Virus record (IMG/VR): IMGVR_UViG_3300014205_000010
Location: 1 to 64,000 of that record
Reading direction: 5' to 3' (one strand)
Source: a virus
Lineage: Duplodnaviria; Caudoviricetes
Length of the DNA stretch: 64,000 bases
Part shown: one piece after another, positions 2,497-19,879 of the stretch
How positions within the stretch are numbered: position 1 is the first letter of the stretch
Layout of the letters: each line of letters opens with the position of its first letter
Notes under the pieces: model-generated
The model's database searches: none
What the model saw: only the letters and a program-made list of their open reading frames with translations
Told to the model about the DNA's origin: nothing
Position numbers and translations under genes: made by a program

Positions 2497-3069
2497 ATGG
2501 TTGACACTAAAATACCAGATAAGATAATGTCTAAAAACGGTAGGGTCTTAGGCAAAGGTGTCTTAGATCCTAAACTAGTAGTTAAACTGCATTATGTTCA
2601 AGGTTTAACTAGAAGTGAAATAGCAAAAAAGTTTGGAGTTACTCCACAAGCCGTAGGAGCATTACTGAATAGAATCAGTAGTGAATCTATACCAGGTTTA
2701 TATGAAAGTGCTCAAGCCCTAGTAGAAGCTAGAGTATCTATTCCAAAAATTATGGAGGGTTTATTATCTGACGCGGCTGCTATTCTTCAAGAAGTGAAAC
2801 TTAACGTAGCATCTGAAGAAGGTGAATGGGATAGAATGTCTATCGAAAAAAGAAAGCTTCAGCTCGCTACTATGTCAGAAATTAGAAGCCAAATAAGAGA
2901 ATTTCGTGATATACAAAGAGAGATGTTTGGCTTAGAAAAGGCTGAAGAATTCCAGCAAATAGTTATGGAAGTAATTCGCGAAGAGGATCCAGAGATTGAA
3001 AAGAAAATTGTCGCAAAGCTCAGACGCGCCCAACCTATTCGACAGATTCTTGGAGAGACTGGGGGGTAA
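2497..3069 (+). CDS. terS: Terminase small subunit (N-terminal HTH)
   Basis: HTH 'GLTRSEIAKKFGVTPQAV' plus helical C-terminus; directly upstream of and overlapping TerL. Confidence 0.7.
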   Translation: MVDTKIPDKIMSKNGRVLGKGVLDPKLVVKLHYVQGLTRSEIAKKFGVTPQAVGALLNRISSESIPGLYESAQALVEARVSIPKIMEGLLSDAAAILQEVKLNVASEEGEWDRMSIEKRKLQLATMSEIRSQIREFRDIQREMFGLEKAEEFQQIVMEVIREEDPEIEKKIVAKLRRAQPIRQILGETGG

Positions 3070-4813
3070 TGAAAAACCAGTATCATCCGCGAAAGAATTT
3101 GTAGATGATTATCTCAAACCAACATCACCATCCTTCTTGGACCCTTCAAAGGCTGTTCATTATGCAATGCCTGACTTTCATAAGGATATGCTTGATACGG
3201 TTGAGAGTGGAGCTTGGATGCTCGTTCTTGTTCCAAGAGAGTTCTCAAAGTCTACAATCGTAACTATTGGGTCTTCTGTTCATCGTATAGTCAAGAATAG
3301 AAATGTTTGTGGCGGAATTATTTCTAATACATATGATCAGGCGGCTAGCTTCTTAAAAGGTGTTAAGAGTCATCTAGAATCTAATAAAAAACTTATAGAC
3401 GAATATGGTGATTTTGAAAGTCAGGTTGGCTGGAGAGATGACATGTTTACTGTCATCAGAAGTAACCAGGCTGAAATCAACCCAACCATGTTTGCAGCTG
3501 GTGCTGGTAAAGCTATTCTCGGTAAGCATACTGATTTTTTGGTTCTTGACGATGTTGAAGACAAGAAAACTGTTTTAACGATTGAAAGTCGAAGAAAAAC
3601 TCAACTCTGGTATACTCAAACTGTTCTACCGATTCTTAGAGCTGGTGGGCAGATGATTATTATCGGCACCAGAAAACACTTTGACGATATCTATATTAAT
3701 ATCCTTAGTGGAAAATTGCCTGGTCCTTCCGCTGAAAATTTGAAAGTTATTGATGCAAGTCTTGATTCAGATTTAGAACCAACTGAAGCTGAACTTATTG
3801 AAGCTGAAAAAGATAAGAGAACTGTTCTTCCATCTTCAGCTGAAATACGACATGGCTGGGTTAGTTTTCCGAGTTTTGCTAAGGCGATTAGAGATGATGG
3901 AACTTCTTTGTGGCAGGAGAAGTGGCCTCTTAAAGCTCTTGAAGAGAGAAAACGTCAGATGGGTCCTATTGCTTGGGCTCAGGAAATGGAAAACAACCCT
4001 GTACCAGAAGAAAACTCATACTTTACATATGCTGCATTTGAAGAATGTTTTGATTTTGATGAAAAGTTTCAGTTTACGTATAGTGGTAATAATCCAATTT
4101 TTATCGGTGTAGATTCGCAGGTTAATCCAGACCCTAAAAAATCATCTGACTTTGGCTCTATATTTGTTATTGAATTTATTCCAGAAACAGAAGATCGTAG
4201 AATTTTATGGATTGAAAGAGGCAGATGGGGTTTTAGAGTTGTAGACAAGATAAAGCAACTTGAACCAAGATACAGGCCTCAAAAAGTTAAGGTTGAAAAC
4301 AACCAGGCTCAAGACTATATTATTCAAGAACTTGATAAAACATCTTCTATACCAGTTGAAGGGTTTACTACTGGCGGACAAAAGCCAGACATCTTCATTG
4401 GTATTCCTTATCTCGCCGCTACAGTTACTTCTGGTAAATGGATTATACCAAGAGGAGACTACGAGTGTGTTGCTCAGACTGATCAATGGATAGCTGAAGC
4501 TCTTGAGTATGGCCAAGGTCATAGTGGTGATACGCTAATGGCTAGCTGGTTTGCTAATGACTGTGCCAGAGAGGTTAGTGCTCTTGGTATAGTAGATCTT
4601 CCAAAGCCAGATAGAATTACCATTAAATCTGAAGATTTTTCTCCAGATCACGATATGCCTGGTGACGAAGCCCAAAGAGGTTTCTACGCTCCAGAAATGT
4701 CTAAAAGTATACACGAATTGTCTTCAAACAGAAATATATATAGCCCTCTTAAGGGTCCGAGATGGAGGTCTCCACGTGGTTTTAATCCAGCAAAGAGAGA
4801 ATTCAGAGGTTGA
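2996..4813 (+). CDS. terL: Terminase large subunit
   Basis: Walker A variant VPREFSKST, Walker B FLVLDD, coupling motif IIIGTR, AQEMENNP, nuclease IFIGVD...D...D motifs. Confidence 0.92.
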   Translation: MKRKLSQSSDAPNLFDRFLERLGGNEKPVSSAKEFVDDYLKPTSPSFLDPSKAVHYAMPDFHKDMLDTVESGAWMLVLVPREFSKSTIVTIGSSVHRIVKNRNVCGGIISNTYDQAASFLKGVKSHLESNKKLIDEYGDFESQVGWRDDMFTVIRSNQAEINPTMFAAGAGKAILGKHTDFLVLDDVEDKKTVLTIESRRKTQLWYTQTVLPILRAGGQMIIIGTRKHFDDIYINILSGKLPGPSAENLKVIDASLDSDLEPTEAELIEAEKDKRTVLPSSAEIRHGWVSFPSFAKAIRDDGTSLWQEKWPLKALEERKRQMGPIAWAQEMENNPVPEENSYFTYAAFEECFDFDEKFQFTYSGNNPIFIGVDSQVNPDPKKSSDFGSIFVIEFIPETEDRRILWIERGRWGFRVVDKIKQLEPRYRPQKVKVENNQAQDYIIQELDKTSSIPVEGFTTGGQKPDIFIGIPYLAATVTSGKWIIPRGDYECVAQTDQWIAEALEYGQGHSGDTLMASWFANDCAREVSALGIVDLPKPDRITIKSEDFSPDHDMPGDEAQRGFYAPEMSKSIHELSSNRNIYSPLKGPRWRSPRGFNPAKREFRG

Positions 4814-6329
4814 TTTTTCCTTAGCTCCTTTACCTGTACAAGGTAAGATATTTCAAGGAGAAATTGGAAAAATGATAGAGCAGTTTGGCCTTTCAAGGGT
4901 CGGACTGAGTAATCTTTTGTTACCAGAAGATAAAGTTAAACTTCCAACTACTGGAGAATTAACTTATCGTGGAATGAGCTATAAATCTCCTTTTGTTAAT
5001 CCTGGAGAGTGGAAGCCTGGAGACTGGATAGACCCAAAAATCATAGACCAGATGAAGAAGAACGGTGTTATTAAAACAGCATTGTTCTTAAAGAAAGCTC
5101 CAATTCTAGCAGTCATTCAAAAATCTAAAATAAAGCATCCAAATCCAAAAGTTGAAGGGTATCTAAATTATGTCTTAGGGCCGATACTCTACAATCTGTG
5201 TTATACTTCTCTCTTTGCATTAGACTACGGTGTATCTCTTCACGAAAAGGTTTTTGAAGCTGGAAATTTATCTTTCAAATACGATCATGACGGAACTATG
5301 CGTACCTTCAAAGGGCCTTCCATACATTACAAGAAAATTAAATGGAATAACCCTAGAACTATTAAAGAGATAAAAATACAGGAAAAATCTCAAGATTTTA
5401 ATGGTTATACTCAAACAGCTGGAATGAGAGATATAGAAATCAGTATTGATAAATCTTTCATGTGGGGTAAAGGCCAAGAAAATACCTTATGGGGTAGCTC
5501 AGATTTAGACGCGGTTTATGAATACTGGTATTGGCTTGAGTTATTGTCTGGCTATTACATGAGATATATGGAAAAGCTCGCCACACCACCGCTCCTTGGA
5601 TACGCTCCTCCTGGAAATACTTACTCAAGAGATACGAATAGTAGCGTAGAGAACATGAGCTGGTTGGCTGAAGTAGCTTCTAGGTTACAAGATGGTATGG
5701 CTATTGTTATGCCATCTCAGTTTGATGCAAATGCTAGACACAGACTCTGGGAACTAAGAGAACTCGCCATGAGTACCAGAGGAGATTTATATCAAACTGC
5801 TATAGGGTGGCTTGAAAACGCTATCTTCAAAGGAATGTTTGTTCCTGATAAGCCTGTTTCTCAGGGAACACAGTCATTTGGTTCTTATGCTCTTGCTGAT
5901 ATACAGTTTGAAGCATTTCTTGTTGGAGAAGAGTGGGATCTACATTCAATGGTCAGGAATGTAGAGAGATATGTTATTAGACCTCTGATAGATCTTAATT
6001 TTGGTCCACAATTTGAAGACGCTGTTCTTTTTTATCCACCGATGTCTAGGGAACTAAAACAGAGAGTTTATGAGGTTTTCAAGGACCTTATAGATGGGCA
6101 TCCAGATTATAATGCAATCAATTTTATAGACATTGCAAATGAGCTTGGAATACCTGTTTACACTGATGAACAGATAAAGGAAAAGAAGAAAGAAGCCTTT
6201 GAGGATGCCACAGCCATGCTTAAAGCTCAAGCTGATGCTAATCCTCAGCCAGAAGAAAGTAATTCTGGTAATGGATCTAGTTCTTCAGTTAAGAAGACTC
6301 CAGCGAAAAAAATTCCTCCTAAAAAGTAG
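4662..6329 (+). CDS. Portal protein (Mu gp29/DUF935-like); true start probably ATG ~4872
   Basis: Follows TerL; 'GSSDLDAVYEYWYW...YMEKLATP', 'GSYALADIQ' and 'IRPLIDLNFG' resemble the DUF935 portal family. Confidence 0.85.
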   Translation: MTKPKEVSTLQKCLKVYTNCLQTEIYIALLRVRDGGLHVVLIQQRENSEVDFSLAPLPVQGKIFQGEIGKMIEQFGLSRVGLSNLLLPEDKVKLPTTGELTYRGMSYKSPFVNPGEWKPGDWIDPKIIDQMKKNGVIKTALFLKKAPILAVIQKSKIKHPNPKVEGYLNYVLGPILYNLCYTSLFALDYGVSLHEKVFEAGNLSFKYDHDGTMRTFKGPSIHYKKIKWNNPRTIKEIKIQEKSQDFNGYTQTAGMRDIEISIDKSFMWGKGQENTLWGSSDLDAVYEYWYWLELLSGYYMRYMEKLATPPLLGYAPPGNTYSRDTNSSVENMSWLAEVASRLQDGMAIVMPSQFDANARHRLWELRELAMSTRGDLYQTAIGWLENAIFKGMFVPDKPVSQGTQSFGSYALADIQFEAFLVGEEWDLHSMVRNVERYVIRPLIDLNFGPQFEDAVLFYPPMSRELKQRVYEVFKDLIDGHPDYNAINFIDIANELGIPVYTDEQIKEKKKEAFEDATAMLKAQADANPQPEESNSGNGSSSSVKKTPAKKIPPKK

Positions 6330-6358
6330 TTTACTTCAGGCATTTTAAGGTCTAAAAT
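6330..6358 (+). promoter_or_regulatory. Sigma70-type promoter TTTACT-N17-TAAAAT heading the MTase/GT island
   Basis: TTTACT 6330-6335, 17-nt spacer, TAAAAT 6353-6358; same pattern as other intergenic promoters in the window. Confidence 0.55.
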
Positions 6359-6374
6359 ATCATAGAGGTGAAGC

Positions 6375-7001
6375 GTGGATATTCCGATGAAAATGTCTGC
6401 TAATGAATTTATTCTTGATGTCTGTGATTTTGTTAATTGTAATATAAATTACCTGTCAAATGCTCCGTTTAAGGATCGTTGGGGTGGAGGTACCGTAGAA
6501 CCAGCTGTTGGTCAGCTGCTCTATCTTCTTGCTCGACATAAGGCTCCTAAACTGGCTATTGAATATGGTACTAATCTAGGATATTCAACGTACATGATAG
6601 CAAAGGCTCTATTTGATAACGGGTTTGGAGAGCTTGTTACTATGGAAATTAATTCAGAATATATCAAAGAGGCTAAGAAAAACGTATATGATGCGCATAT
6701 AGCTGCATATAATAATCATGTTAGTTTCTTAAAAGCTGATAGTACAAGCGTATATGCCAAGAAGTTTATTGAAGATAATCGCGAAGTTATTGACCTAGTC
6801 TTTGTTGATAGCTCTCACGAATATGATCAGACATTAGAAGAATTTCGACATATCAGAAAGACTTGTAAACCAGGAACCATTCTCTGCTTTCATGATATAT
6901 ATTCTGATGGTGTTTCAAGAGTACTTCGAGAAGAACCTTTTGATAAATATCTGGCTGTTCCAACTCAACCAAATACTGGATTTGGTATAGTAATTTTGTA
7001 A
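6375..7001 (+). CDS. Class I SAM-dependent O-methyltransferase (Methyltransf_24-like)
   Basis: EYGTNLGYS motif I, DLVFVDSSHEY, CFHD. Confidence 0.85.
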   Translation: MDIPMKMSANEFILDVCDFVNCNINYLSNAPFKDRWGGGTVEPAVGQLLYLLARHKAPKLAIEYGTNLGYSTYMIAKALFDNGFGELVTMEINSEYIKEAKKNVYDAHIAAYNNHVSFLKADSTSVYAKKFIEDNREVIDLVFVDSSHEYDQTLEEFRHIRKTCKPGTILCFHDIYSDGVSRVLREEPFDKYLAVPTQPNTGFGIVIL

Positions 7002-7044
7002 TGTTCATTTAGTAACAAACGTGTTATAGTAAAGAAGAAGAAAA

Positions 7045-7668
7045 ATGCCGATTATAAATACATCAAAGTTTAGACACCAACTAGAAGAGACGCTAGATCC
7101 TACCTGGAATATTCTCTACTTAGGAGATGGTCAGCCAGTTGATCTTGCTTCAGTTGTTATTTCTTCAAAGCCATTTGATGAGCGGTTGTTAAATAAAAAT
7201 AGCTGCTGGGGTAAACACTGTTGGGAACAAGCTGATTTTTCTGGCCATTTAGATTTTATTCTTAATGATTCGTATGATTTTATCTGGGTAGATGGGCTAT
7301 TGAGCTGGGTAGCTAATCCATTCAATTTGATCCGGCAGATAGAACATTCTGCTCCGGCTGGTTATATCTCATTTAACTCTAGAAAGACTGAGCATGTACT
7401 TGGAATAGATTATCCTAATCAGTGTGGTTATATGAGAAGTGGCTGGCTTATTGAAAAATTATATGATGATGTAAAACAGCTTGAGCTTGTTTTCACTAGA
7501 AAAACATTTGCCGTAAGAGCTTTCGGCTCTATACAAGGAATTCCAGAAGAAAGAAAACAAATATTATGGGCTGAAAATATACCATGTAGAGAAAATGTTT
7601 TAGCGTCACCTGATTTAATTCAAGATGCTATAGATTTTAAGAACATTAGGAGCAAAGTAATAACATGA
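7045..7668 (+). CDS. Degenerate SAM-methyltransferase-fold protein
   Basis: ILYLGDG (eroded motif I) and YDFIWVDGLLSWVANP (cf. FDFxxxxHVLEHxxNP). Confidence 0.55.
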   Translation: MPIINTSKFRHQLEETLDPTWNILYLGDGQPVDLASVVISSKPFDERLLNKNSCWGKHCWEQADFSGHLDFILNDSYDFIWVDGLLSWVANPFNLIRQIEHSAPAGYISFNSRKTEHVLGIDYPNQCGYMRSGWLIEKLYDDVKQLELVFTRKTFAVRAFGSIQGIPEERKQILWAENIPCRENVLASPDLIQDAIDFKNIRSKVIT

Positions 7669-8471
7669 ATTTAATTTCTAGCCCATATGGCGATGGTATG
7701 GATCCAGAAGAGTATGAGCTTTGTATTCAAGATGCTATGGAATTCTTCAACATTTCTCGTGAAGAAGCTGCCTCTAAAATGCGAGGATCACAGCTTTTTA
7801 AAGAGCATCTTGATAAAGGTGAGTCGCTAGATTTTATCTATGATAATACAGATGCTGTTATTTGGGATCTTCTTACTGTAAAAGCTACTGTATCTTCAGG
7901 TATTAAAGAGCGATATCGTGAAAAAGTCGTAAAAAATATTCTTAACAAATATGGAACCCATAATCTTTCTTTTGTCATGGATTATGGTTGTGGAATTGGA
8001 CGTGAAGCATTAGTTGCAGTTAATGAAGGATACTATGTTGATGGCGTAGATCGAGGACAAACAATTAAATTTGCTGATTTTTATATTAATAAACAAGCAG
8101 CATTTCCAAATAATTGGAAAGCTATAAAGAGCAGTGATTTTATTCCAATATCATATGACATCATTATGTGCTTTGAATATTTTGAGCATGAAAATGATCC
8201 TGAAGAACTAGTTACAAAATTCAGAAATATACTTACAGATGATGGATTGTTAATTTGTAATTCTAGGTCCTTTAATGCTCATGACACTGGACATCTTGAA
8301 CATAATTTCAAATATCAGTATGAATTTGAAAAAATTATTGCCGCGGCTGGATTTGAGTGTATTTATTTTCCTTACAACCCGCCAAATCTTTATAACATAG
8401 CGGTATGGAAAAAAGTTGATAAAGCTAATAGTTATTATAATGGATTCACTACTGAAAAAGGAGAGTGGTAA
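7665..8471 (+). CDS. Class I SAM-dependent methyltransferase
   Basis: MDYGCGIG, YDIIMCFEYFEHENDP, LTDDGLLI. Confidence 0.85.
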   Translation: MNLISSPYGDGMDPEEYELCIQDAMEFFNISREEAASKMRGSQLFKEHLDKGESLDFIYDNTDAVIWDLLTVKATVSSGIKERYREKVVKNILNKYGTHNLSFVMDYGCGIGREALVAVNEGYYVDGVDRGQTIKFADFYINKQAAFPNNWKAIKSSDFIPISYDIIMCFEYFEHENDPEELVTKFRNILTDDGLLICNSRSFNAHDTGHLEHNFKYQYEFEKIIAAAGFECIYFPYNPPNLYNIAVWKKVDKANSYYNGFTTEKGEW

Positions 8472-8785
8472 TGGCAGGAGAAGACATAGAAACTAGAAGA
8501 GAAGCTATTCTATTAGAATTGGCAGAGAGAATTCTCAAGACTATTCCAAGTATTCCAGAAGATTTTCATGAATTAAAACCAGAGGAACAAGATCGTATTT
8601 TCGTTGTTATTGATGAAAGAGCCACAAAGGTCTCAGAACTGCTTAATATGAAACAAGCTACTCCAAGAGGCCCAGTTCGTAATCCTAGAGGTCCTCGTCG
8701 CTCTGAAAGATTCAATACTCCAGCGCTCGATACGGAGATAACTCCAAGAAAGCCTAGACGTATCGTTACTGATGGAGTGGATTAA
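8465..8785 (+). CDS. Hypothetical protein with basic C-terminal tail
   Basis: ORF with AGGAG RBS, overlapping neighbours. Confidence 0.6.
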   Translation: MVMAGEDIETRREAILLELAERILKTIPSIPEDFHELKPEEQDRIFVVIDERATKVSELLNMKQATPRGPVRNPRGPRRSERFNTPALDTEITPRKPRRIVTDGVD

Positions 8786-9620
8786 GATTCTTACTGATTC
8801 AACCTCAAGCCCGAAGGGTAAGGGAAGATACTTTTCTATGCCCGACCTTACATCAAGATTATTTGATGGCATGAGTTTGGCCGCCTTATCACAATCTCTC
8901 TTGGATGATATGATCTCTTTTGAAGCAAGAGAGCTTAATATGCCAAAAAGAGACCGAGAAGAAGCTAGAAACCTGACAGATTTTCATAATCATCCTGATG
9001 TGGTTGCAGAATGGGAAGCTGATAAAAATCAGGAAGATGAATATGAAGGATCTGAATGGTTCTATGGAGCGCTGGCTTCTTTTGTTTTCACCGTTAAGAG
9101 TCTATATGGTACATATCGTTTTCTTAAAGCTGACTACCCTGACTTCAAACCGCGTATTATTGTAGACTGGGGAGCAGGCTTAGGGATGCATTCTCTCATA
9201 GCATCATGGCTTTGGCCTGAAGCTAAGATAGTTTATTTCAATGTGCCTGGCATGCAGTCTAATTTTGCTAAACAGATAAAGAAAGCATATGAAGCTGACA
9301 ATATGTATATCAAGACTAAGAGAGAAAATCTTCCGCCAAAGGCAGATCTGATTCTCTCTTATGAATTTCTTGAGCACATGAAAAATCCAGTAGAAGCTGC
9401 CAGAGACATGATGCGTCTAAACCCTGAATTTATGTCTGTTAGCTTCTCTTTTACTGCAGCCTGTCATGGTCATTATACATATTTTGAAACAGATGATGGA
9501 GAAGTTCATCGTTCTGAAGTAACGAGATATGTCAATGACGAATTTCGAATTCATGAATATCAAGCAGTAGGCCATGGCTGGAATGCAAGGCCAGTTATGT
9601 GGAGAAGACATGAAAGTTAA
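8772..9620 (+). CDS. Class I SAM-dependent methyltransferase
   Basis: VDWGAGLG, ADLILSYEFLEHMKNP. Confidence 0.8.
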   Translation: MEWIKILTDSTSSPKGKGRYFSMPDLTSRLFDGMSLAALSQSLLDDMISFEARELNMPKRDREEARNLTDFHNHPDVVAEWEADKNQEDEYEGSEWFYGALASFVFTVKSLYGTYRFLKADYPDFKPRIIVDWGAGLGMHSLIASWLWPEAKIVYFNVPGMQSNFAKQIKKAYEADNMYIKTKRENLPPKADLILSYEFLEHMKNPVEAARDMMRLNPEFMSVSFSFTAACHGHYTYFETDDGEVHRSEVTRYVNDEFRIHEYQAVGHGWNARPVMWRRHES

Positions 9621-9837
9621 AGTCTGGTTTTTTATATGCAAATGTGGATATAGGCATATCAGCTCGACAGGTGGTATTCATTATGGAGCTGCTGTAAATT
9701 ACTTTAGAGCAGTACATGATGAAAAGCCTGATCATAGGTGGAAAAGTCAGCAGATAGATGTTTTGGTTCCAATGGATCTGTACTCATGGAATCTAACAGC
9801 CGTTAGAGAGGATATTGATGAACTTATCTCTGGCTGA
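9610..9837 (+). CDS. Small hypothetical protein (MKVKVWFFICKCG..., possible metal-binding C/H residues)
   Basis: GGAG RBS before ATG near 9610; fills the gap between two MTases. Confidence 0.5.
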   Translation: MKVKVWFFICKCGYRHISSTGGIHYGAAVNYFRAVHDEKPDHRWKSQQIDVLVPMDLYSWNLTAVREDIDELISG

Positions 9838-10651
9838 TAGAGATCCTCTAACAGGTTTATATCTATGTCCTGGGGATCAGCACTGGACTAGACTCTTTGG
9901 CATGACTAGAAAGAAACTTTTTAATAAACTGCTTTATATGGTTATTGATTGGGAAGGTCAAGAGCTAGGGGTCAGAAGATCTCCATATGATGCTCATTCT
10001 CTGTGTTATAAATATACTGAAGATGAGGTTACAGATGAATGGGAAGCTTATGCGCCTTTCCAAAAAGAACACCTTGAGGATATGAATGAATTTGATACTT
10101 CGGAATGGCTTTATACTTGCCTCGGCAGTTTTAACTTTACCGGGCATGAAGTCTTTACCACTTACAACTTCCTGGAAAGAATTGAATATAAACCAAAAAA
10201 TATTCTTGACTTTCATAGCGTTATTGGTCTTCATGCTCTCCTACTGTCTAAACTTTATCCTTCTACTGATGTGGTCTACTTCCATCCTGTTCCTCGCACC
10301 TATGAGTTTGTTCGTGACTGTCTTTTTCCTGCATTTCATGTCAAGGCTGATATCATAACTGATATAAATAAAGTTTCAAAAGCAGATTTAGTATGTTCAT
10401 ATGAGGTTTTTGAAAGAGATCCAGAGCCAATGCAACTTATGCAAACCTGTATAAAAACTATTGGTACTTTTTTCAGTACTAGTAATTGTTGGACTAGACC
10501 TGCAAGAACACACTTTAAAGAATATCTGATAAATGATCAGTGGGTTCCTGAAACTGGAGCAGCTAGAGCTTATAATTCTTTAATAGGTGAACAGCTTAAA
10601 AAGGTAGCCAAAGGCTGGAATTCAAGACCAACTATATATATGAAGGAGTAG
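9815..10651 (+). CDS. Methyltransferase-fold paralogue of 8772-9620 with eroded SAM motif
   Basis: Shares SEW(F/L)Y, ADL..SYE and GWN.RP motifs with 8772-9620; motif I reads LDFHSVIG. Confidence 0.7.
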   Translation: MMNLSLADRDPLTGLYLCPGDQHWTRLFGMTRKKLFNKLLYMVIDWEGQELGVRRSPYDAHSLCYKYTEDEVTDEWEAYAPFQKEHLEDMNEFDTSEWLYTCLGSFNFTGHEVFTTYNFLERIEYKPKNILDFHSVIGLHALLLSKLYPSTDVVYFHPVPRTYEFVRDCLFPAFHVKADIITDINKVSKADLVCSYEVFERDPEPMQLMQTCIKTIGTFFSTSNCWTRPARTHFKEYLINDQWVPETGAARAYNSLIGEQLKKVAKGWNSRPTIYMKE

Positions 10652-10654
10652 GCC

Positions 10655-11260
10655 ATGGCTGTAGCCCCGTATATAGAAGCACAATATTGGAAAGATCATA
10701 TTAATGGCATGATCATTAATGATCTGAAGGATGGTATATTTGGAAATGTTTTATTTATAGGCTGTAATCACGGAGCTGAAGTTGAGGTTGCATGGGAATT
10801 ATGCGAGAATGCTACTTCTCTTAATGGCCTAGATATAGATAATGATGCTCTGTCTTTTGCATATCGTAGAAAAGTAGGTAATTTCTTTGCCCATGATATT
10901 AGACAGAAATTACCAGATGAGCCTAAGTATGATACAATTATCAGTTTTCATACACTTGAACATTTTGATGATGAAGAGTTAAAAACCGTAGTTGATAATA
11001 TATATGCTGCTCTTAATAAGGGTGGGTTGGTTATAGTGTCTGTTCCTTATCTTCATGCTTATCCAACTACGGAACACAAGCAATTTTTTGACCACAAGTC
11101 TCTCAGAAAAGCTTTCAATAAGTTCGATGTTACGCATTGCCAGAGAGATGACAGAGTAGATAAACATGGAAATAAACACGACGTTATTACTTTAATGGCA
11201 AGGAAGAATTTTAATGAAAATCGGATTAGTAGTAACTCCAATAATCCAGTGTCCGCCTGA
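10655..11260 (+). CDS. Class I SAM-dependent methyltransferase
   Basis: LFIGCNHG, GLDID, YDTIISFHTLEHF, LNKGGLVIVSVP. Confidence 0.85.
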   Translation: MAVAPYIEAQYWKDHINGMIINDLKDGIFGNVLFIGCNHGAEVEVAWELCENATSLNGLDIDNDALSFAYRRKVGNFFAHDIRQKLPDEPKYDTIISFHTLEHFDDEELKTVVDNIYAALNKGGLVIVSVPYLHAYPTTEHKQFFDHKSLRKAFNKFDVTHCQRDDRVDKHGNKHDVITLMARKNFNENRISSNSNNPVSA

Positions 11261-12224
11261 GAGATACGGTGGTATTGAACGGGTAGCGTATTGGCTTGGA
11301 CAAGATCTTGTGAAACTTGGTCATAAGGTTACATTGTTTGCTAGAGATGGTTCGTATCTTGAAGGAGCAGAAGTCATTACTTTTCTAGGGTCAGAAGGAA
11401 AAGAGTATGCTTCTCTTATAGCCCAGAAACACCGTGGAACCTATTTTGACGTTATTCATGATTTTACGCATGATAAGCATTTAACTGGTCACTTTAGATA
11501 TGAATCTAGAGTAATTAATACACTTCAAGGCCTTGCTAAAAGAGGGCCTAATACTGCTTGTATATCATATGCTCAAAGGAAACATCTTTATGGCGAACTT
11601 GCTACTTACCCGGTTGTTTACAATCGCGTTCCTACTGATTATTTTGTGCCTATTAATAATCCAACTCGCGACTATCTTCTCTACATGGGCAGCGTTAATG
11701 ACTACAAGGGTGTTGATATCGCAGTTGAAGTTGCCATTGAAACAGGAAACGTCTTAAAAATCTGTGGGCCAGCCTGGGATTCAGCATATTTTGATAAATT
11801 CGTTAAGCCAAAAATCGGAGATAATATTCAATTTATTGGAGATGTTGGTGGTGAAGAAAAACTCAGTCTTTTACAGAATGCTAAGGCTTTGTTTCACCCA
11901 GTCAGGTGGTGCGAAGCCGGAGCTATTATTGTTTCGGAATCTATTTCTTGTGGTACTCCAGTTGTTGGTTCTTACAATGGTGTCATCCCCGAGCTTGTTT
12001 CTCCAGCTGTTGGTAAGCTTGCATTTGTCTTACCTTTTGATGAATACAAGCATGGTTCTGGCGGCTGTTATAACAAAGAAGGAATGATAGAAGCAGTAGA
12101 GACTATAGACGAAATTGACAGAGATACGTGTAGAGGATATGCTGAAGCATATTTTGACAAGAGCAAATCTACAGTTGAATATCTAGAATTATATGCTAAA
12201 ATAACTTCAGGAGAAAACTGGTAA
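11214..12224 (+). CDS. Glycosyltransferase, GT4 (GT-B)
   Basis: PPERYGGIER, GHKVTLFA, YKGVD, EAGAIIVSESISCGTPVV. Confidence 0.9.
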   Translation: MKIGLVVTPIIQCPPERYGGIERVAYWLGQDLVKLGHKVTLFARDGSYLEGAEVITFLGSEGKEYASLIAQKHRGTYFDVIHDFTHDKHLTGHFRYESRVINTLQGLAKRGPNTACISYAQRKHLYGELATYPVVYNRVPTDYFVPINNPTRDYLLYMGSVNDYKGVDIAVEVAIETGNVLKICGPAWDSAYFDKFVKPKIGDNIQFIGDVGGEEKLSLLQNAKALFHPVRWCEAGAIIVSESISCGTPVVGSYNGVIPELVSPAVGKLAFVLPFDEYKHGSGGCYNKEGMIEAVETIDEIDRDTCRGYAEAYFDKSKSTVEYLELYAKITSGENW

Positions 12225-12548
12225 ATGGAAGCTGCGCAGCCTAGACTTAATTCAACATGTGCAAATGCCATGAAAAAATGGGGCAGGCCAGTTGATTGGG
12301 ACAAAGTAAATGGTACGCTCTCTTGCAACTATTGTGGGTCTATGACCGTCGAAGATTTTCAAGTTCAGCTAGAGACACTTCACGTAGACTTTTTTGAAAT
12401 TAATCTAGAAAGAAAACAAATTAGTATTAGAAGAAACCAGGCTCCATTTAGATTTTGCCATTACCACCTGTTTGATGATGGAGCTACTCAGGAATCTGCT
12501 GATACTATGTGGAATATGATAATCGAGAAGCTCGATGCCAAATCTTGA
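12225..12548 (+). CDS. Hypothetical protein with CxxCG motif
   Basis: Starts immediately after the upstream TAA; CNYCGS. Confidence 0.6.
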   Translation: MEAAQPRLNSTCANAMKKWGRPVDWDKVNGTLSCNYCGSMTVEDFQVQLETLHVDFFEINLERKQISIRRNQAPFRFCHYHLFDDGATQESADTMWNMIIEKLDAKS

Positions 12549-12687
12549 CCACGAGCATGAATTCGAATGCAAGCAGTGCTATGCACGCCCGGACCCGGTT
12601 CCGGCCAAGTGGAACACATGGTGCAGTGCCCTAGCTATTGTGTGTCCAACCGTCCTCCTGATGTTCGTCAAGTGGATGAATTCATGA
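12535..12687 (+). CDS. 50-aa Cys-containing peptide with hydrophobic C-terminus (below ORF-track cutoff)
   Basis: MPNLDHEHEFECKQCYARP...ALAIVCPTVLLMFVKWMNS; its TGA overlaps the GT2 ATG (ATGA at 12684-12687). Confidence 0.5.
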   Translation: MPNLDHEHEFECKQCYARPDPVPAKWNTWCSALAIVCPTVLLMFVKWMNS

Positions 12688-13382
12688 CTAAAGCTGATTT
12701 AATTGTATCAGTTCATGTTGTAGACGAGCCCTCCTTGGATTACCTTAGGCAATGTCTGAACTCAATTATTCAATTTACTCCAAGAGAGTTATATACTCTT
12801 ACCTGTGTTATTGATCGGGGTTATGATGGAACAGCCGAATTTATCCGTGACCATTACTGGTCCAAAGGTCACGTTGACTTCGTGTTATATAATCGAGATC
12901 AACAGGGCTACACAAGAACAAATAACATCGGCCTTGAGAGATCTGAAGCTGAGTGGGCCGTCCTCCTTAATCTTGATCTCGTTGTTAACCAAAGATGGCT
13001 CGAAGATCTTATTGACTGCGGAGAACGGAGTATGGCAGGTGTGGTCGGATGTAAGCTCCTTGATGATTCGGGACTCATCAATCATGCTGGCGCTTATGGA
13101 GTTGGGTCACATCGTGGCATGAATGAACTCAATATCAACTATTTCGAGGAGGAAGAAGTTGAATGGGTTACTGGTGCCTGTTTTATGATAAATAAAAAGC
13201 TTCGAGATGCCATTGGTAATCTTGATGAATATTATCCGCATTGGGGTAGCGACAGAGAATATTGTCTTAAGGCTAGAGAAGCTGGTTTCAAGGTTATGTA
13301 TTCTCCCGTAACTATCACACACTATACTGAGCGATCTAATTCTGAAGAAGTCAAAGCTATGTTTAAGGATTTACCGCGCTAA
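12684..13382 (+). CDS. Glycosyltransferase, GT2 (GT-A, WbbL/rhamnosyltransferase-like)
   Basis: YLRQCLNSI, GYTRTNNIG, VLLNLD, WVTGACFMI, SDREYCLKAREAG. Start re-called at 12684. Confidence 0.88.
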   Translation: MTKADLIVSVHVVDEPSLDYLRQCLNSIIQFTPRELYTLTCVIDRGYDGTAEFIRDHYWSKGHVDFVLYNRDQQGYTRTNNIGLERSEAEWAVLLNLDLVVNQRWLEDLIDCGERSMAGVVGCKLLDDSGLINHAGAYGVGSHRGMNELNINYFEEEEVEWVTGACFMINKKLRDAIGNLDEYYPHWGSDREYCLKAREAGFKVMYSPVTITHYTERSNSEEVKAMFKDLPR

Positions 13383-13582
13383 TGAATAATAAAGCTACTG
13401 TTACCTGGACAGACGTACCTTTAGAAGCAAATAAAGTTATTGCTCCAGATTTAATTTGTTTTGATCATTACCTAAAGAGGTCTGGTGAATATAATAAAGC
13501 TGGTAAGCCATATGTTGCTCTGGTTCAATATGAAGATCTTGGACCAGAATGTATTGATTGTGCAATGGAAGTGGATGTGTAG
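13382..13582 (+). CDS. Small hypothetical protein (CxxH...CxxC)
   Basis: TAATG coupling to the GT2 gene. Confidence 0.5.
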   Translation: MNNKATVTWTDVPLEANKVIAPDLICFDHYLKRSGEYNKAGKPYVALVQYEDLGPECIDCAMEVDV

Positions 13583-13653
13583 TCCTATTAGATAGGTGAG
13601 TTGACGTTGACAGTCATCATCCTGCAATGTTATCGCGATAAGGAAACAATATA

Positions 13654-14682
13654 ATGAGTATAAATCTTGGATATGTACGTGGAAATGTATCAAATCATCA
13701 GGACTACGTTATTTTTAGTGAAGTTCACTCACAATCTCTAGAAAAAATTAACGTAGCTTGTTGCGCAACTAAATTTGAAAAAAACAATTTCTGGGATAAA
13801 GGAAAGATAAGGCAGCGTTCTTATGTCGATATTGAAGATATTATATCTGGCGAGTTTGATATTCTTGATGTTAGCGAGTTTTATCGGGATTATAGCCAGT
13901 CTATACTCTCAAAATTCAACGGAAAAAAGTCGGTTACTGTCTTCGATAATTTACCTTTTGGTATTTCTGGCGGTAATGCTGGTGCTCTATCTGCTAATGC
14001 CGATTTAATTATCGCTAGAACGGCTATGATTAAGAATATGCTCTTGCTTGAAGGTGTTCCAGATGAAAAGATTCAGATTATTCCTAGTGCTGTAGATACT
14101 ACTTATTTTAAGCCTGGTATTAATACAGGTAATAATAATATTGTATTATTCTGTGGAAGGTTAGCACCAGAAAAAGGGTTGTGGGACCTTATTGTCGCCA
14201 TGACTGGTTTAAAGGCTGAATTGCATGTTGCGGGCGAAGGAGACATCAGGCCATATCAGACCTTAGCAAGTAAGTGTAAGGTCAATATGAAGTATCATGG
14301 AAAGATTGAATACTCTGGTCTAGCCAGTTTTTATAGATCTGGCAGTATACTTGTTGTTCCATCTATTCCGAAGATAGATGCATATAATCCTGCAAACTCA
14401 TGGGTTGAACAGTTTGGCATGGTTATTCTTGAAGGTATGTCCACTGGATTACCTGTTATTTGTTCTGACACTGGGTCAGCTAGAGATATTTTTGGTGTTA
14501 CCAAAGCTGGATTATTATTTCCGCCAAGAGCTTGGGATATACTTAGAGATCAGATAGTCATGCTGTTGAATAATAGCGCTATGAGAAACGAGCTTGGCGG
14601 AAAAGCTCTTCGCAGAGCCAATAGCACATTTTCTACCTTAAATGTAGGCAGATTATTAGCGGAGGCATATAGTGAGCTTTAA
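13654..14682 (+). CDS. Glycosyltransferase, GT4
   Basis: AVDTTYFKP, FCGRLAPEKG, EQFGMVILEGMSTGLPVI. Confidence 0.9.
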   Translation: MSINLGYVRGNVSNHQDYVIFSEVHSQSLEKINVACCATKFEKNNFWDKGKIRQRSYVDIEDIISGEFDILDVSEFYRDYSQSILSKFNGKKSVTVFDNLPFGISGGNAGALSANADLIIARTAMIKNMLLLEGVPDEKIQIIPSAVDTTYFKPGINTGNNNIVLFCGRLAPEKGLWDLIVAMTGLKAELHVAGEGDIRPYQTLASKCKVNMKYHGKIEYSGLASFYRSGSILVVPSIPKIDAYNPANSWVEQFGMVILEGMSTGLPVICSDTGSARDIFGVTKAGLLFPPRAWDILRDQIVMLLNNSAMRNELGGKALRRANSTFSTLNVGRLLAEAYSEL

Positions 14683-15349
14683 AATATCTGTAGCAATGAT
14701 AGTACAAAATGACGCGAAAAACGTTTATCGAGCTCTTGAGAGTTGTGATTTTGCAGATGAAATTATTATTGTAGATGGTGGAAGTCAAGATGATACTCTC
14801 AGGCAGATAGGCAAATATATGAGTAGCTCTCCTATTCCAGTTACTATTTTACAGAGTATATGGCCTGGAGATTTTTCAATTCAGAGAAATATATCATTTA
14901 GACATTGTGATTCAGACTGGATAATAAGATTAGATTCTGATGAACAGTTTGGTGTAAAGTTTAGAAATGTTTTAAGGCCATTATTGTCGGAAATTCCAGA
15001 AGATGTTTTATCTGTTAGGATAAGACAATGTAATTTAATAAATAATAATTATGAATATGCCGCCAATTTAGGAGGCTGGGAGACACACCCAAGAATATTT
15101 CGGTCAAAAATTGGAGATGAAAAAATAGATCTTAACTGGAATGGTAAAGTTCATGAGTGGGTTAGTGGAGTATCTCATAGATGTTTAGACTGGAATGTTT
15201 GTGTTATTCACTATGGCTGGATAGATAAGGAAAAACTTAAAGAAAAAGAGCTGCATTATATTAATATACCAGGTTCTGGATTTGAAACTGAAGGTTCACT
15301 TACAGATAGATATTATGTTGTTAGAGATTTACCTCAAGGAGTGATTTAG
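14672..15349 (+). CDS. Glycosyltransferase, GT2
   Basis: ISVAMIVQN, DEIIIVDGGSQDDT, DFSIQRN, WIIRLDSDE (DxD), GKVHE, HYG. Confidence 0.9.
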   Translation: MSFKISVAMIVQNDAKNVYRALESCDFADEIIIVDGGSQDDTLRQIGKYMSSSPIPVTILQSIWPGDFSIQRNISFRHCDSDWIIRLDSDEQFGVKFRNVLRPLLSEIPEDVLSVRIRQCNLINNNYEYAANLGGWETHPRIFRSKIGDEKIDLNWNGKVHEWVSGVSHRCLDWNVCVIHYGWIDKEKLKEKELHYINIPGSGFETEGSLTDRYYVVRDLPQGVI

Positions 15350-17661
15350 TGAAAATATGTATTTATTCTTCTCATCATGGAACTAAGTCTGGTGGAGAGA
15401 ATCACTCTCTTAGCCTGATAGATTCCTTGAAGGATAATTATGACGTTACGGTTATGATTGATCACTACAAACAGGATAGAAATGAAGAAATTTATGAATT
15501 CATGGGCGATGAATTCAGGGACAAAGTAACGTTCGTCCCCTTGGATATTCCATCAATCAAATTTTATGATGTCTTTATCAATATTAACCATGGTTTCATG
15601 CTTCCTCCTCTGGCTAGGAGAAATATAATCCTGTGTTTTTATCCTCAATTTGTTTGGGATACCAATGGATACGACACTATAATTACAAACTCTAGTTTCA
15701 CAAAGCAACAGATTGTAGAACGCTGGAAAAGAAAAGAAGATGATATTCATGTTGTTTATCCAGTTCTTAATCTTGAGCAGTTCTTTTCTGTTGAAAAGAA
15801 AAGACAGATTTTAACCATTGGTAGATTTTTTCAAGTACCTGATGGAAATAACAAAAACCACAAGGTCATGATAGAAGCTTTTAAACGTCTTGATGATCCA
15901 GAAGCCAAGCTTATTATTGTTGGCTCTATTCAAGATCGGCAATACTATGATGAATGTGTTGAACTTGCTAGGAATCATAATATAAGTTTCATGCACGATG
16001 TTTCGCAGGGCATGCTTATAAAACTATACGCTGAATCAAAAGTTTATTGGCATGCTGCTGGTTATGAAGCCAAATATCCATCTTCGATGGAGCATTTTGG
16101 TATGGTAGCTCTTGAAGCTATGGCCTCTAAATGTCTTCCTATTGTGCATAATTCAGGTGGTATGCCTGAATCAGGAGCAGCTACATGGTCTGATATATCA
16201 ATTCTTATCGAGAAAACTAAAGTGGCCCTTGATAATCAAGCTGATTCATTTGCATGGCCTGATCTCAGCAAATATTCAGTGGAGAATATTAAGGAACAAT
16301 ACATAGAAATTATTGAAAAGCCTATTGCAGTATATCGCCCAAGTGAGGCAGATACATTCGATAGACCAACTGTGAGGGTATCTATTGACCCTAAAGAGAT
16401 CACGGTAGGCATCATCGGAGATGCTCCAAATCTTACCACTGGATTCGGTCTTGTTGAAAAAATGTTTGGCCAAGGCTTTAAGCAGGCAGGATTTAATGTT
16501 ACTCAGATTGGTGTTCAAGATGAAAATACTGAACCTAAACAAGATGATCCATGGAGAGTATGGAGGCCAGGACATAGTCCTATTACAGCAGAAATTCTTC
16601 ACCGATGGATAACTAAAGATAAACCGAATATCTTGTGGCTCAATTATGACGCTGGAAATATTGCAAGTTGGCTTAATATGCTAGCTTCAATTAAGTGTCA
16701 GATACCTGTGATAGCATATTTTCCTGTTGAAGGTTTTCCTATTCCAAGAGGATTTGGCGAAATGGCTAGAATGATAGCAAAGCCTATAACTTATCTGAAA
16801 TGGGGCTCAGATTTATTTAGAGACCAGGAAAATGTTGATGTAGATTGGGTTCCTCACGGAGTTAATCATGCTCCTTTCAGGAGATTTTCTGAAGAAGAAC
16901 GAAGAAATCTCAAAGAAGGCGTTGGTTGGCAAGATAAATTTGTTATCGGATTTTTTGGTAGAAATAAGAGAACTAAGCAACACCCAAGGGTTATTGAAAC
17001 TGTCAGAATGTTAAAGGAAGAAGGCATTACTGATTTAGTTCTTTACATGCATACTCAGAATTTTGAACATAATATGATGAATGGCTGGGCATTAGATCAG
17101 ATTATTGAATATAATGGTGTATCTGAAATGGTTTGTATACCTCCAAATTTTAATCAGACGCATGGTGTTTCATATTCTGATCCTACTCCTATAGATGACA
17201 TCGCTGTTTCAGCTATAGACTGGGATAATGACCCTAAAGCTGCTCAGAAAGCTCATAATCTTGTTTTGAACTCATATAGTCTCGTAGAAAGATACAATCT
17301 CTGTGATTTGTTTATTAGCGTATCTCAGGCTGAGGGATTTAACCTACCTCTAGGTGAGGCTATGGCTTGTGGAGTACCAATAATATGTGTAAATGATTCT
17401 GGCTCTCAATCTGAGGTAGTTGGTGAGGCTGGTATTCTTATAGATCCAATTGAATGGGATACTTGGCATGTTGGAACCCTGCTTCCAATCGTTTCAAAGA
17501 AAAAGCTCATGTTTGAAATCATGAAGGTTATGGCTGACCCACAACTTAGGGCCACCATGAGTGATGCTTCCTTGGAAAGAGCTAAAAACTACCTCTGGGA
17601 ATACTCAACCTCTAAAATGAATAAGATAGTAATAGAAACCTATAACAAGGTGCTATCATGA
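15349..17661 (+). CDS. Tandem double GT4 glycosyltransferase (770 aa)
   Basis: Two GT-B catalytic signatures: EHFGMVALEAMA and EGFNLPLGEAMACG; second domain starts at IIGDAPNLTTGFG. Confidence 0.88.
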   Translation: MKICIYSSHHGTKSGGENHSLSLIDSLKDNYDVTVMIDHYKQDRNEEIYEFMGDEFRDKVTFVPLDIPSIKFYDVFININHGFMLPPLARRNIILCFYPQFVWDTNGYDTIITNSSFTKQQIVERWKRKEDDIHVVYPVLNLEQFFSVEKKRQILTIGRFFQVPDGNNKNHKVMIEAFKRLDDPEAKLIIVGSIQDRQYYDECVELARNHNISFMHDVSQGMLIKLYAESKVYWHAAGYEAKYPSSMEHFGMVALEAMASKCLPIVHNSGGMPESGAATWSDISILIEKTKVALDNQADSFAWPDLSKYSVENIKEQYIEIIEKPIAVYRPSEADTFDRPTVRVSIDPKEITVGIIGDAPNLTTGFGLVEKMFGQGFKQAGFNVTQIGVQDENTEPKQDDPWRVWRPGHSPITAEILHRWITKDKPNILWLNYDAGNIASWLNMLASIKCQIPVIAYFPVEGFPIPRGFGEMARMIAKPITYLKWGSDLFRDQENVDVDWVPHGVNHAPFRRFSEEERRNLKEGVGWQDKFVIGFFGRNKRTKQHPRVIETVRMLKEEGITDLVLYMHTQNFEHNMMNGWALDQIIEYNGVSEMVCIPPNFNQTHGVSYSDPTPIDDIAVSAIDWDNDPKAAQKAHNLVLNSYSLVERYNLCDLFISVSQAEGFNLPLGEAMACGVPIICVNDSGSQSEVVGEAGILIDPIEWDTWHVGTLLPIVSKKKLMFEIMKVMADPQLRATMSDASLERAKNYLWEYSTSKMNKIVIETYNKVLS

Positions 17662-17879
17662 GCAATCTAGAAAATAGAAATGAAGACCTGTATAAGCTTG
17701 TCCGCGCTTATCCTAATCTGGTCTATGAGTTAATCAGTTTTGTTACTGAACCGGCTGTAGTTAAACTATTATCAGCTGGAGGACAAAATCATGGCGAACT
17801 TACTTTTACAGTCGTTAAAGGAGAAGTAGTTTCTCTAAAGCCGTCAATGGAATTAAAGAGAAATTATGAGATAACATGA
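17658..17879 (+). CDS. Small protein, DUF2292/YezD-like
   Basis: HGELTFTVVKGEVVSL pattern; ATGA-coupled to neighbours. Confidence 0.5.
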   Translation: MSNLENRNEDLYKLVRAYPNLVYELISFVTEPAVVKLLSAGGQNHGELTFTVVKGEVVSLKPSMELKRNYEIT

Positions 17880-18157
17880 CTACATATAGGTTCGGCGAAT
17901 ATACTTTTTATTTTGAGGCCGGGCTGTTACAAATTGGTAGTAAGATTGTGCAACTTACTGTTCTTGAAGGTGATGTTTTACGGGAACTTTGTATTCAGCA
18001 TCCTAGCCCAATCAGAGATGTAAATGGTATGGACTTTAACTCTTTTAAACAGATAATATTTAGGCTTAGACGGAAAATTAATAAAGATTTCTGTAAAACA
18101 AATTTTGGCAGAGGTTATGTTCTGAATTGCGATAACGTTTCTAATTTGTCTGGCTAG
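17876..18157 (+). CDS. Stand-alone OmpR/PhoB-type winged-helix DNA-binding protein
   Basis: YRFGEYTF...VQLTVLEGDVLREL...IIFRLRRKI...TNFGRGYVL matches the Trans_reg_C pattern. Confidence 0.75.
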   Translation: MTTYRFGEYTFYFEAGLLQIGSKIVQLTVLEGDVLRELCIQHPSPIRDVNGMDFNSFKQIIFRLRRKINKDFCKTNFGRGYVLNCDNVSNLSG

Positions 18158-18191: not shown

Positions 18192-18223
18192 TGGGGTTGG
18201 ATTATTTCCAGCCCCATTTTTTT
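18192..18223 (+). terminator. Rho-independent terminator
   Basis: TGGGGTTGGA-TTATT-TCCAGCCCCA stem followed by T7. Confidence 0.7.
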
Positions 18224-19480: not shown

Positions 19481-19879
19481 ATGCCTTATAGAAGTACTAT
19501 GGGCAGTTATCAGGCGCATAAGGATGTCCTCCTTAGTCGCCAATTTGTTCCTGCTGCATATACTTTTGCTGGAGGTGAAAACGGCCCAGTCGCCGCTGAT
19601 GCTGATGGTGATAGATTAATATTTGCAGGCCAGGTAGTTTCTGTTGATTCAGTCACAGGCAAAGCCTATCCTCATAGTGTTGCTCATGCGGCACAGGAAG
19701 TGGTTGGGGTTCTTATAGAAGATGTTAATGTCCGTAATGGAGATGAAGCATCTACAATCATTGTTGAAGGCTGGGTTGATGAAAATCTCTGCATTGACCT
19801 TGATGTCTTTGGCGCAGTAGGCACATCAGCTAAGACAGCTCTTGCCAACAGAGTCAACTTTACGAAGAGAGGGCTGTAA
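19481..19879 (+). CDS. Head decoration protein
   Basis: Between protease and MCP; IFAGQVV, VGVLIEDVNV, IIVEGWVDE. Confidence 0.7.
   Translation: MPYRSTMGSYQAHKDVLLSRQFVPAAYTFAGGENGPVAADADGDRLIFAGQVVSVDSVTGKAYPHSVAHAAQEVVGVLIEDVNVRNGDEASTIIVEGWVDENLCIDLDVFGAVGTSAKTALANRVNFTKRGL

Follow-up and report, generated by a model that had tools for sequence, protein, structure and literature searches.

Between the portal gene and the scaffold/protease gene of an uncultured phage from a landfill metagenome lies an island of methyltransferase and glycosyltransferase (GT) genes, which is embedded in the head module and may serve to glycosylate the phage's own particle. The source record (IMG/VR record IMGVR_UViG_3300014205_000010) is 91,320 bp long, with direct terminal repeats at its ends and a completeness rating of 100%; the window analysed here is its first part, 64,000 nucleotides in length. 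Among sequencing runs, the stretch was found in its probable source DNA run only, from a landfill metagenome, and no RNA run is listed. The nearest cultured phages are very distant, with TerL ~24-26% identical and capsids, from Gordonia, Tsukamurella and Bacillus phages, ~26% identical; given its GC content of 36-41%, the genome is not actinophage-like. Coordinates are collected in Table 1, and genes are referred to below by their first position.

The preliminary description of this DNA counted six genes with the fold of class I S-adenosylmethionine (SAM)-dependent methyltransferases, a count borne out by Pfam, by relatives and by structure models, with one gene degenerate and five having a plausible SAM loop. 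Pfam directly supports 6375, 7665 and 10655, while the other three needed relatives, paralogy or structure models. A glycine-rich motif I together with a Rossmann-like fold is found in 6375, 7665, 8772 and 10655. The Atlas model of 7045 superposes on Methyltransf_11 clusters with template modelling (TM) scores of 0.62-0.73, its glycine loop being atypical. Gene 8772 has 464 relatives by exhaustive search, and Methyltransf_23 was matched by 32 of the 41 that were aligned. Its AlphaFold2 (AF2) model, with a predicted local distance difference test (pLDDT) value of 87.6, matches solely SAM methyltransferases, including the sugar O-methyltransferases RebM, AtmM and EvdMO1, at TM scores <0.5, which supports the predicted fold only. 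In its paralogue 9815 the reading frame is intact, two of the three glycines of motif I are gone (DFHSVIG versus DWGAGLG) and FEH has become FER; this protein is probably inactive as a methyltransferase; it could be a pseudoenzyme, or could bind substrate as a partner of 8772. The Pfam matches of the island methyltransferases are to small-molecule and O-methyltransferase families, and a motif search for DNA-methyltransferase motifs, of the DPPY/NPPY class ((D/N/S)PP(Y/F/W)) or PCQ plus ENV, found none in any island protein, as had been stated beforehand. For a methyltransferase match in Virus Rctr41k, the gene context was uninformative.

Pfam and catalytic motifs likewise uphold the earlier count of five GT genes with six catalytic domains (two GT2, two GT4 and one double GT4), four of these domains being of the GT4/GT-B type. 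Against a Glycos_transf_1 gathering cut-off of 26.4 bits, the GT4 genes score 58, 88 and 128 bits, and all four GT4 domains hold the E-x7-E motif: EAGAIIVSE, EQFGMVILE and EGFNLPLGE were returned by the motif search, which skipped overlapping matches, and E-HFGMVAL-E is visible in the translated N-terminal domain of the double GT4. Orthologues of 11214 in L001 and L006-L010 are 30-40% identical, and the relatives of 13654 in the PDB are of the PimB, MshA and WaaB type. The GT2 at 12567 shows a conserved N-x-D (NLD in this phage and NSD in its relatives) and no classic DxD; its first ~39 residues have no counterpart in orthologues, and its true start is probably near 12684. The fusion of the two GT4 domains in 15349 is retained at 57-59% identity in close relatives and at 30-39% in IMG/VR phages, and its C-terminal domain groups with mostly viral GT4 clusters. 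Homologues of this protein also show other fusions: P0195, P0197 and P0210-P0213 (contigs of ~3-65 kb) are joined to SAM-methyltransferase domains, one of them also to TPR repeats, and P0192, P0193 and P0198 (contigs of 73-94 kb) to GT2 domains.

The small GT2 at 14672 deserves separate mention. Its closest solved sequences are those of GmaR and of the glycocin S-glycosyltransferases SunS and ThuS (E 2.6e-9 to 6e-5), soluble GT-A enzymes that put the first sugar straight onto a protein or peptide. GmaR, from Listeria, is a flagellin O-N-acetylglucosamine (O-GlcNAc) transferase (PMC3150276). The phage protein lacks the TPR and peptide-binding domains that set the acceptor specificity of GmaR and SunS, and it scores 36 bits against the SunS NCBIfam model, whose cut-off is 350. 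It is a candidate protein-priming enzyme by a match that spans the donor-binding half, which is weak evidence on the acceptor.

No island protein contains a 19-residue segment with a mean Kyte-Doolittle hydrophobicity above 1.5, and the island enzymes are all predicted to be soluble. Phosphoglycosyl transferases (PF02397, PF00953) and Wzx flippases (PF01943) had no match in the phage's own genome and four relatives (two complete and three partial genomes), where positive controls did match. The lack of a priming transferase, of a flippase and of membrane segments argues against a lipid-carrier polysaccharide route encoded by the phage itself. In this respect, the preliminary description was correct that flippases, membrane-anchored GTs and DNA-methyltransferase motifs are missing (Pfam, hydrophobicity and motif search), and its notion of a soluble, multi-step pathway that builds and methylates a glycan gains support from the enzyme families and their predicted solubility.

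Table 1. Genes and signals of the head module and the island, with associated loci. Positions refer to the window unless another record is named.
Feature	Position	Strand	Assignment and remarks
Putative small terminase	2497-3069	+	
TerL	2996-4813	+	phrog_38
Portal, Mu type; upstream island boundary	4662-6329	+	phrog_113 at 3.6e-21; PF06074 (precomputed); relatives 57-65% identical
Promoter-like site	6330-6358	+	TTTACT, 17-nt spacer, TAAAAT; within the 45-nt gap after the portal stop codon
Island (methyltransferases and GTs)	6375-18157	+	between portal and scaffold/protease
O-methyltransferase	6375-7001	+	Methyltransf_24; O-methyltransferase family 3, CmcI-like; L001 orthologue 40% identical
Class I SAM-methyltransferase-fold protein	7045-7668	+	no Pfam match; L001 orthologue (29% identical) matches Methyltransf_11
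SAM methyltransferase, N-terminal helical extension	7665-8471	+	Methyltransf_23/11/12/25; L001 orthologue 54% identical
Small open reading frame (ORF), 106 aa, basic C-terminus	8465-8785	+	no Pfam or PHROG match; no homologue in relatives
SAM methyltransferase, divergent Methyltransf_23-like family	8772-9620	+	weak Pfam match; motif I intact (IVDWGAGLG)
Small ORF, 87 aa, doubtful gene	9574-9837	+	overlaps both neighbours; no family match
Degenerate paralogue of 8772-9620	9815-10651	+	30% identity to 8772-9620 (BLASTP, E 8e-29)
SAM methyltransferase	10655-11260	+	Methyltransf_23/12/25/11; also immediately precedes the GT block in L007, L008 and L009
GT4, first gene of the five-gene GT backbone	11214-12224	+	Glycos_transf_1, 58 bits; E-x7-E at residue 234
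Small Cys/His-containing ORF, 107 aa	12225-12548	+	no family match; no homologue in relatives
GT2 (GT-A), second backbone gene	12567-13382	+	Glycos_transf_2, 40 bits; orthologues 30-38% identical
Small ORF, 66 aa	13382-13582	+	no family match; no homologue in relatives
GT4, third backbone gene	13654-14682	+	Glycos_transf_1, 88 bits; orthologues 29-33% identical
Small GT2 (GT-A, 225 aa), fourth backbone gene	14672-15349	+	Glycos_transf_2, 62 bits; DSD conserved in five phages
Fused double GT4 (770 aa), fifth backbone gene	15349-17661	+	two Glycos_transf_1 stretches, 128 bits
Two small ORFs, 73 and 93 aa, end of transcription unit	17658-18157	+	no family match; no homologue in relatives
Intrinsic-terminator-like hairpin	18192-18216	+	10 pairs, 6 of them G-C, then T7; intergenic
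Scaffold/protease, Mu gpI-like (weak); downstream island boundary	listed 18197, likely 18236, to 19477	+	Mu-like_Pro, 21 bits, E 2.3e-4, below cut-off
Capsid decoration protein, gpD/SHP-like	19481-19879	+	weak HDPD hit and structure model
Decoration proteins of four relatives	L006:14838-15248; L007:15937-16344; L008:19100-19507; L010:14882-15289		
Major capsid protein, lambda gpE type	19880-20911	+	Phage_cap_E at 4.6e-17
Tail-tube gene	22417-23031	+	
RmlB-like nucleoside diphosphate (NDP)-hexose 4,6-dehydratase, outside the window	genome 83,534-84,562 (L005:11535-12563)	-	TIGR01181, 284 bits (cut-off 365)

The arrangement of portal, methyltransferase, GT and protease genes, which the preliminary description had singled out for a synteny survey, proved conserved across the clade, with the GT backbone directly upstream of the scaffold, decoration and capsid genes. 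The closest portal relatives (57-65% identical) lie on metagenomic contigs of 36.6, 48.0, 65.7 and 89.8 kb. Orthologues of GT2 14672 (55-61%) were found on contigs of the same four sizes, and full-length orthologues of the double GT4 (57-59%, 770 aa) on those of 65.7 and 89.8 kb, co-location of portal and GT genes in these close relatives being read from the equal kb sizes of the contigs. Locus L001, from the 48-kb contig, carries downstream of its portal four ORFs without assignment and then Methyltransf_24, GT4, Methyltransf_24, Methyltransf_11 and Methyltransf_23 genes, among them orthologues of 6375, 11214, 7045 and 7665. Five further and more distant IMG/VR loci (L006-L010) were retrieved with an alignment of the double-GT4 family and their gene order mapped by tblastn. 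In all loci that extend far enough, the order is, after Methyltransf_24 and 10655-like methyltransferase genes that are not always present, GT4, GT2, GT4, GT2, double GT4, a few small ORFs, scaffold/protease (syntenic in all relatives), decoration and capsid. Relative to the window, the proteins of these loci are 29-41% identical for the GTs, 29-37% for the capsid and 27-36% for the decoration protein, and the portal is 31-33% identical in G001 and G004, the two records in which tblastn detected it. By these figures, the GTs (29-41%) are about as conserved as the structural proteins (25-37%). A Mu-type portal lies upstream on the same strand in all four records checked, and every Pfam GT1 and GT2 match falls between the portal and scaffold genes in five of five.

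The portal-proximal part of the island is, in the relatives, variable. It holds methyltransferases, among them a TylF O-methyltransferase (264 bits), a DegT/EryC1 aminotransferase (280 bits), sulfotransferases, additional enzymes of the GT-A type, DUF5662 and epimerases/dehydratases of the short-chain dehydrogenase/reductase (SDR) type, the SDR and DegT genes each occurring inside the island in two relatives. This content would imply sulfated and amino-deoxy sugars in some clade members. The tailoring genes lie at L007:248-5394, L008:823-9323 and L012:3409-6782 and in L013 and L014, together with a TOD1/MUCI70-like GT. The picture suggested by these comparisons is that of a five-gene GT backbone inherited with the head genes and accompanied by a variable set of sugar-tailoring genes, an architecture like that of bacterial O-antigen loci. 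The gap between portal and scaffold genes measures 19-21 kb in four relatives versus 11.9 kb in the window phage, so that the 'unusually long' glycan foreseen in the preliminary description is so only in relative terms. What appears to set the window phage apart is its expanded methyltransferase set, despite an island shorter than those of the four relatives measured.

Beyond this clade, the distant portal relative L002 (28%) has no GT or methyltransferase Pfam match in the 5.7 kb downstream of its portal, and the island is therefore not general to phages with Mu-type portals. Against cultured phages, neither megablast with the island nor tblastn with the double GT4 returned anything; the same was true of IMG/VR scans with the portal, with a single double-GT4 sequence and with an alignment of the 7665 methyltransferase, and of a scan of GTDB genomes with a portal alignment.

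Within the head module, the island seems to form a transcription unit of its own. The promoter-like site at 6330 named in the preliminary description matches 9 of 12 positions in a generic promoter scan and is there at chance level (56 sites found versus 55 expected), but it fits the pattern TTTAC-N18-TAWAAT, which occurs four times in the window, at 6330 (+), 50251 (-), 57556 (-) and 62199 (+), versus 0.19 expected. As the pattern was derived from the 6330 site, its support comes from the other three sites only, of which two precede gene starts by ~30-50 nt and one falls at a gene junction; the pattern probably represents the sigma-70-type promoter class of this phage. At the other end, the terminator placed at 18192 in the same description is intergenic and was both the top candidate and the strongest stem in a 19-kb terminator scan. 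The TTG start listed for the scaffold/protease gene at 18197 falls within this hairpin, and the ATG at 18236, behind GAGG, is the likelier start.

To our knowledge, proof that a phage glycosylates its particle with enzymes that it encodes exists only for a few mycobacteriophages, in which the modification lowers antibody recognition. Among them, Corndog (cluster O) encodes an O-methyltransferase, two GTs and a putative GlcNAc-transferase (gp35-gp38) between portal and protease (PMC4351075); Che8 and Myrna have related systems of virion O-glycosylation. According to three later reports, the Corndog enzymes modify the capsid and the tail tube, and the acceptors in phages of the Corndog/Che8 type are C-terminal residues of the capsid and tail-tube subunits (PMC11600133, PMC12363180, PMC12619734). 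The window phage, which is known from its genes alone, resembles Corndog in that soluble GTs and an O-methyltransferase lie between the portal and the protease/capsid genes, in that the first post-portal gene encodes a Methyltransf_24-class O-methyltransferase (gp35 in Corndog, 6375 here), and in that neither has a lipid-carrier or export gene. The differences are considerable. BLASTP of the island against gp35-gp38 (E<=0.01) finds nothing, and the first methyltransferases share only their Pfam family, Methyltransf_24; gp37 and gp38 give small hits of the GT-A type (GT2-like and GT25-like) and gp36 has no Pfam match, whereas four of the six domains in the window are GT4/GT-B; the cassette comprises 11.8 kb and 11 enzyme genes, compared with ~2.8 kb and four genes; and the glycosylated C-terminal tails of the Corndog capsid and tail tube have no visible counterpart in the window phage. 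A functional rather than sequence-based analogue is found in the chlorovirus PBCV-1, in which A064R combines two rhamnosyltransferase domains with a 2-O-methyltransferase domain and A061L is a 3-O-methyltransferase (PMC9614988). In PBCV-1, virus-encoded soluble multidomain GTs act with dedicated class I SAM methyltransferases, and the capsid-protein glycan is made in the cytoplasm without host machinery; fusions of GT and methyltransferase domains recur among the double-GT4 homologues. PBCV-1, however, is a eukaryotic giant virus with N-linked glycans, and its genes are not embedded in a head-assembly operon.

On balance, we put at a little above one half (about 0.55) the probability that the island encodes a cytoplasmic pathway which builds a multiply O-methylated oligosaccharide on one of the phage's virion proteins. 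The acceptor, most likely a protein of the head surface, is something we infer, as we do the order of the steps, the sugar as methyl acceptor and the biological role. As a separate unit, read from a sigma-70-type promoter of its own (6330) and ending at the terminator at 18192, the island would be expressed independently of the scaffold, decoration and capsid genes just behind it, whose expression is high, and its enzymes would therefore be made in catalytic amounts. The first sugar would be placed onto a Ser or Thr of the acceptor by the GT-A enzyme 14672 or by the other GT2. From nucleotide sugars, the GT4 proteins (11214, 13654 and both halves of 15349) and the second GT2 would then extend the chain, and up to five active SAM methyltransferases would methylate sugar hydroxyls. 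We favour sugars as their substrates because relatives carry sugar-tailoring enzymes and because GT4-methyltransferase fusions exist; likewise, since the enzymes are predicted to be soluble and the tailoring enzymes of relatives modify nucleotide sugars or sugar hydroxyls, the product would be a methylated oligosaccharide and the methyltransferases sugar O-methyltransferases. Such a coat might shield the surface of the particle or change its stickiness.

As to where on the head the glycan might sit, none of the structural proteins inspected, capsid and tail tube included, has a Ser/Thr-rich C-terminal tail. The decoration protein offers another candidate. Its AF2 model (pLDDT 65) finds its best PDB matches in P21 SHP, lambda gpD and the PhiTE and YSD1 capsid entries, and residues 1-14 are modelled with low confidence. 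Across five phages, residues 3-12 are 40% Ser/Thr, versus 14% in the remainder of the protein, a difference whose nominal significance is inflated by the kinship of the sequences. The N-terminal arms close on a conserved Tyr (RSTMGSY, RTSLSTY, SPSITSY, SSSITSY and TPASSTY). That this arm is the glycan acceptor is speculative. We would extend the proposal only tentatively, and with a good deal of doubt, to a clade-wide 'glycan factory' in the head module of uncultured phages with lambda-like heads (12-20 kb, or ~13-24% of the two complete genomes), with a fixed five-gene GT backbone and quickly changing enzymes for methyl, sulfate and amino-deoxy-sugar tailoring, that decorates this exposed arm with a complex, strain-specific heteroglycan and diversifies like O-antigen; if true, the virion would bear a glycocalyx far more elaborate than any shown for phages.

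Several observations weigh against a glycan made for the particle. The island has no BLAST homology with Corndog gp35-gp38, the five phages differ in the last residue of the capsid (T, S, A, A, A), and GT2 14672 resembles GmaR and SunS only over the nucleotide-sugar-binding half, with no acceptor-binding domain. The promoter type at 6330 recurs in the early and replication regions and is no proof of co-expression with the head genes. Lastly, host polysaccharides, too, are assembled by soluble GT4 and GT2 enzymes, which there work on lipid carriers that the host provides.

This last point leads to the alternative that the island remodels a glycan or protein of the host envelope (teichoic acid, lipopolysaccharide (LPS) or exopolysaccharide (EPS) precursors, flagellin or S-layer) by way of host carriers and exporters, and so masks receptors against trapping on debris or against rival phages. 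In the assembly of O-antigen, EPS and teichoic acid, the peripheral enzymes are usually GT4 and GT2 proteins that have no membrane segments; the best of the weak NCBIfam matches are to EPS, LPS and teichuronic-acid enzymes; and GT2 14672 further matches the PDB entries 5tze and 5tz8 (4e-4 to 9e-4), which are titled only 'Glycosyl transferase' and which we take to be the teichoic-acid GlcNAc-transferases TarS and TarP. Variable tailoring enzymes would fit an arms race at any exposed surface, and the promoter is like those of non-structural regions. No priming transferase or flippase was found in the two complete genomes; a host-carrier route retains some weight because these missing genes could be supplied by the host. 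The position of the genes speaks against an envelope target: all GTs of each genome sit in the head module, and the GT block is fixed upstream of the scaffold, decoration and capsid genes and conserved like structural genes, though the capsids themselves are only ~30% identical, a fixed and structurally co-conserved placement unlike that of the usual host-range or moron cassettes. Lysogenic conversion is improbable, as no integrase was found in the phage's own genome. Altogether, we regard an envelope target as unlikely.

Considerably less probable is a free or carrier-bound methylated oligo- or polysaccharide of the cytoplasm, comparable to the polymethylated polysaccharides of mycobacteria or built on a small island protein, that would be packaged, act as chaperone or osmolyte, or interfere with metabolism. 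Soluble enzymes throughout, several methyltransferases beside GT4 genes, six small ORFs without assigned function and the lack of an acceptor motif on capsid or tail tube would all accord with it, but relatives with the GT backbone do not share these small ORFs, we know of no phage precedent for a free methylated saccharide, and the tight, conserved linkage to the head genes would be left unexplained. We give least credence to a role on DNA, in which the island would extend and methylate a sugar on hypermodified phage DNA and so continue the pathway encoded at 46.6-51.3 kb. The genome does encode a ThyA-like candidate hydroxymethylase (hydroxymethylcytosine-synthase-like; 46,863-47,504) adjoining the DNA-modification GT; phage GTs that place several sugars on DNA are described in a preprint (bioRxiv 10.1101/2023.12.21.572611); and the C-terminal half of 15349 has a partial match to PF20706 (GT4-conflict). 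That match covers ~40 residues only, inside a far stronger Glycos_transf_1 match. A distance of 29 kb separates the island from the DNA-modification block, which lies on the opposite strand, the island lacks DNA-methyltransferase motifs, and six GT domains together with the sulfo- and amino-sugar tailoring of relatives far exceed, in our judgement, the known needs of DNA glycans. Moreover, the complete genome G003 (83 kb, direct terminal repeats) keeps the island without a ThyA-like gene, which makes a DNA-glycan role unlikely; none of the four relatives has such a gene, three of these records being incomplete. The separation from the DNA-modification GT at 47524 that had been assumed beforehand thus appears justified.

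The sugar donors call for some revision of the preliminary description, which found no genes of NDP-sugar synthesis and proposed that all donors come from the host. The island itself indeed contains no nucleotide-sugar gene, but an RmlB-like dehydratase is encoded elsewhere in the genome, at 83.5 kb, between ThyX and an M23 peptidase; no NTP_transferase was found in the genome. Either the island or the DNA-modification pathway could draw a 6-deoxy sugar from this enzyme. With the SDR located in the G001 island it shares only 26% identity, and the two are therefore not orthologues. With this gene, and with SDR and DegT enzymes inside the islands of relatives, exclusive reliance on host donors is doubtful.

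Virion glycosylation from the head module is already known from Corndog/Che8, and chlorovirus A064R/A061L provide a functional analogue (PMC9614988). What is new here is a GT4-based cassette without BLAST-detectable similarity to that of Corndog, its size, the clade-wide combination of a fixed backbone with variable tailoring genes, a sixfold set of methyltransferases that includes a decayed paralogue, and its occurrence in a genome that is not actinophage-like. At least nine related metagenomic contigs carry conserved counterparts, which suggests an old and costly trait that is widespread among environmental phages. If confirmed, the proposed function would bear on the behaviour of particles in their environment (stability, adhesion, decoy avoidance and immune recognition in therapy) and on the annotation of head-module genes now listed as 'unknown', and the clade might offer a new source of sugar O-methyltransferases and of soluble enzymes that glycosylate proteins.

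A last observation concerns G003, in which a Mom-family gene (L011:3168-3848, minus strand) lies beside an integrase-N-terminal-like ORF between the portal and the island; the DNA-modification strategy of this phage may differ from that of the window phage.

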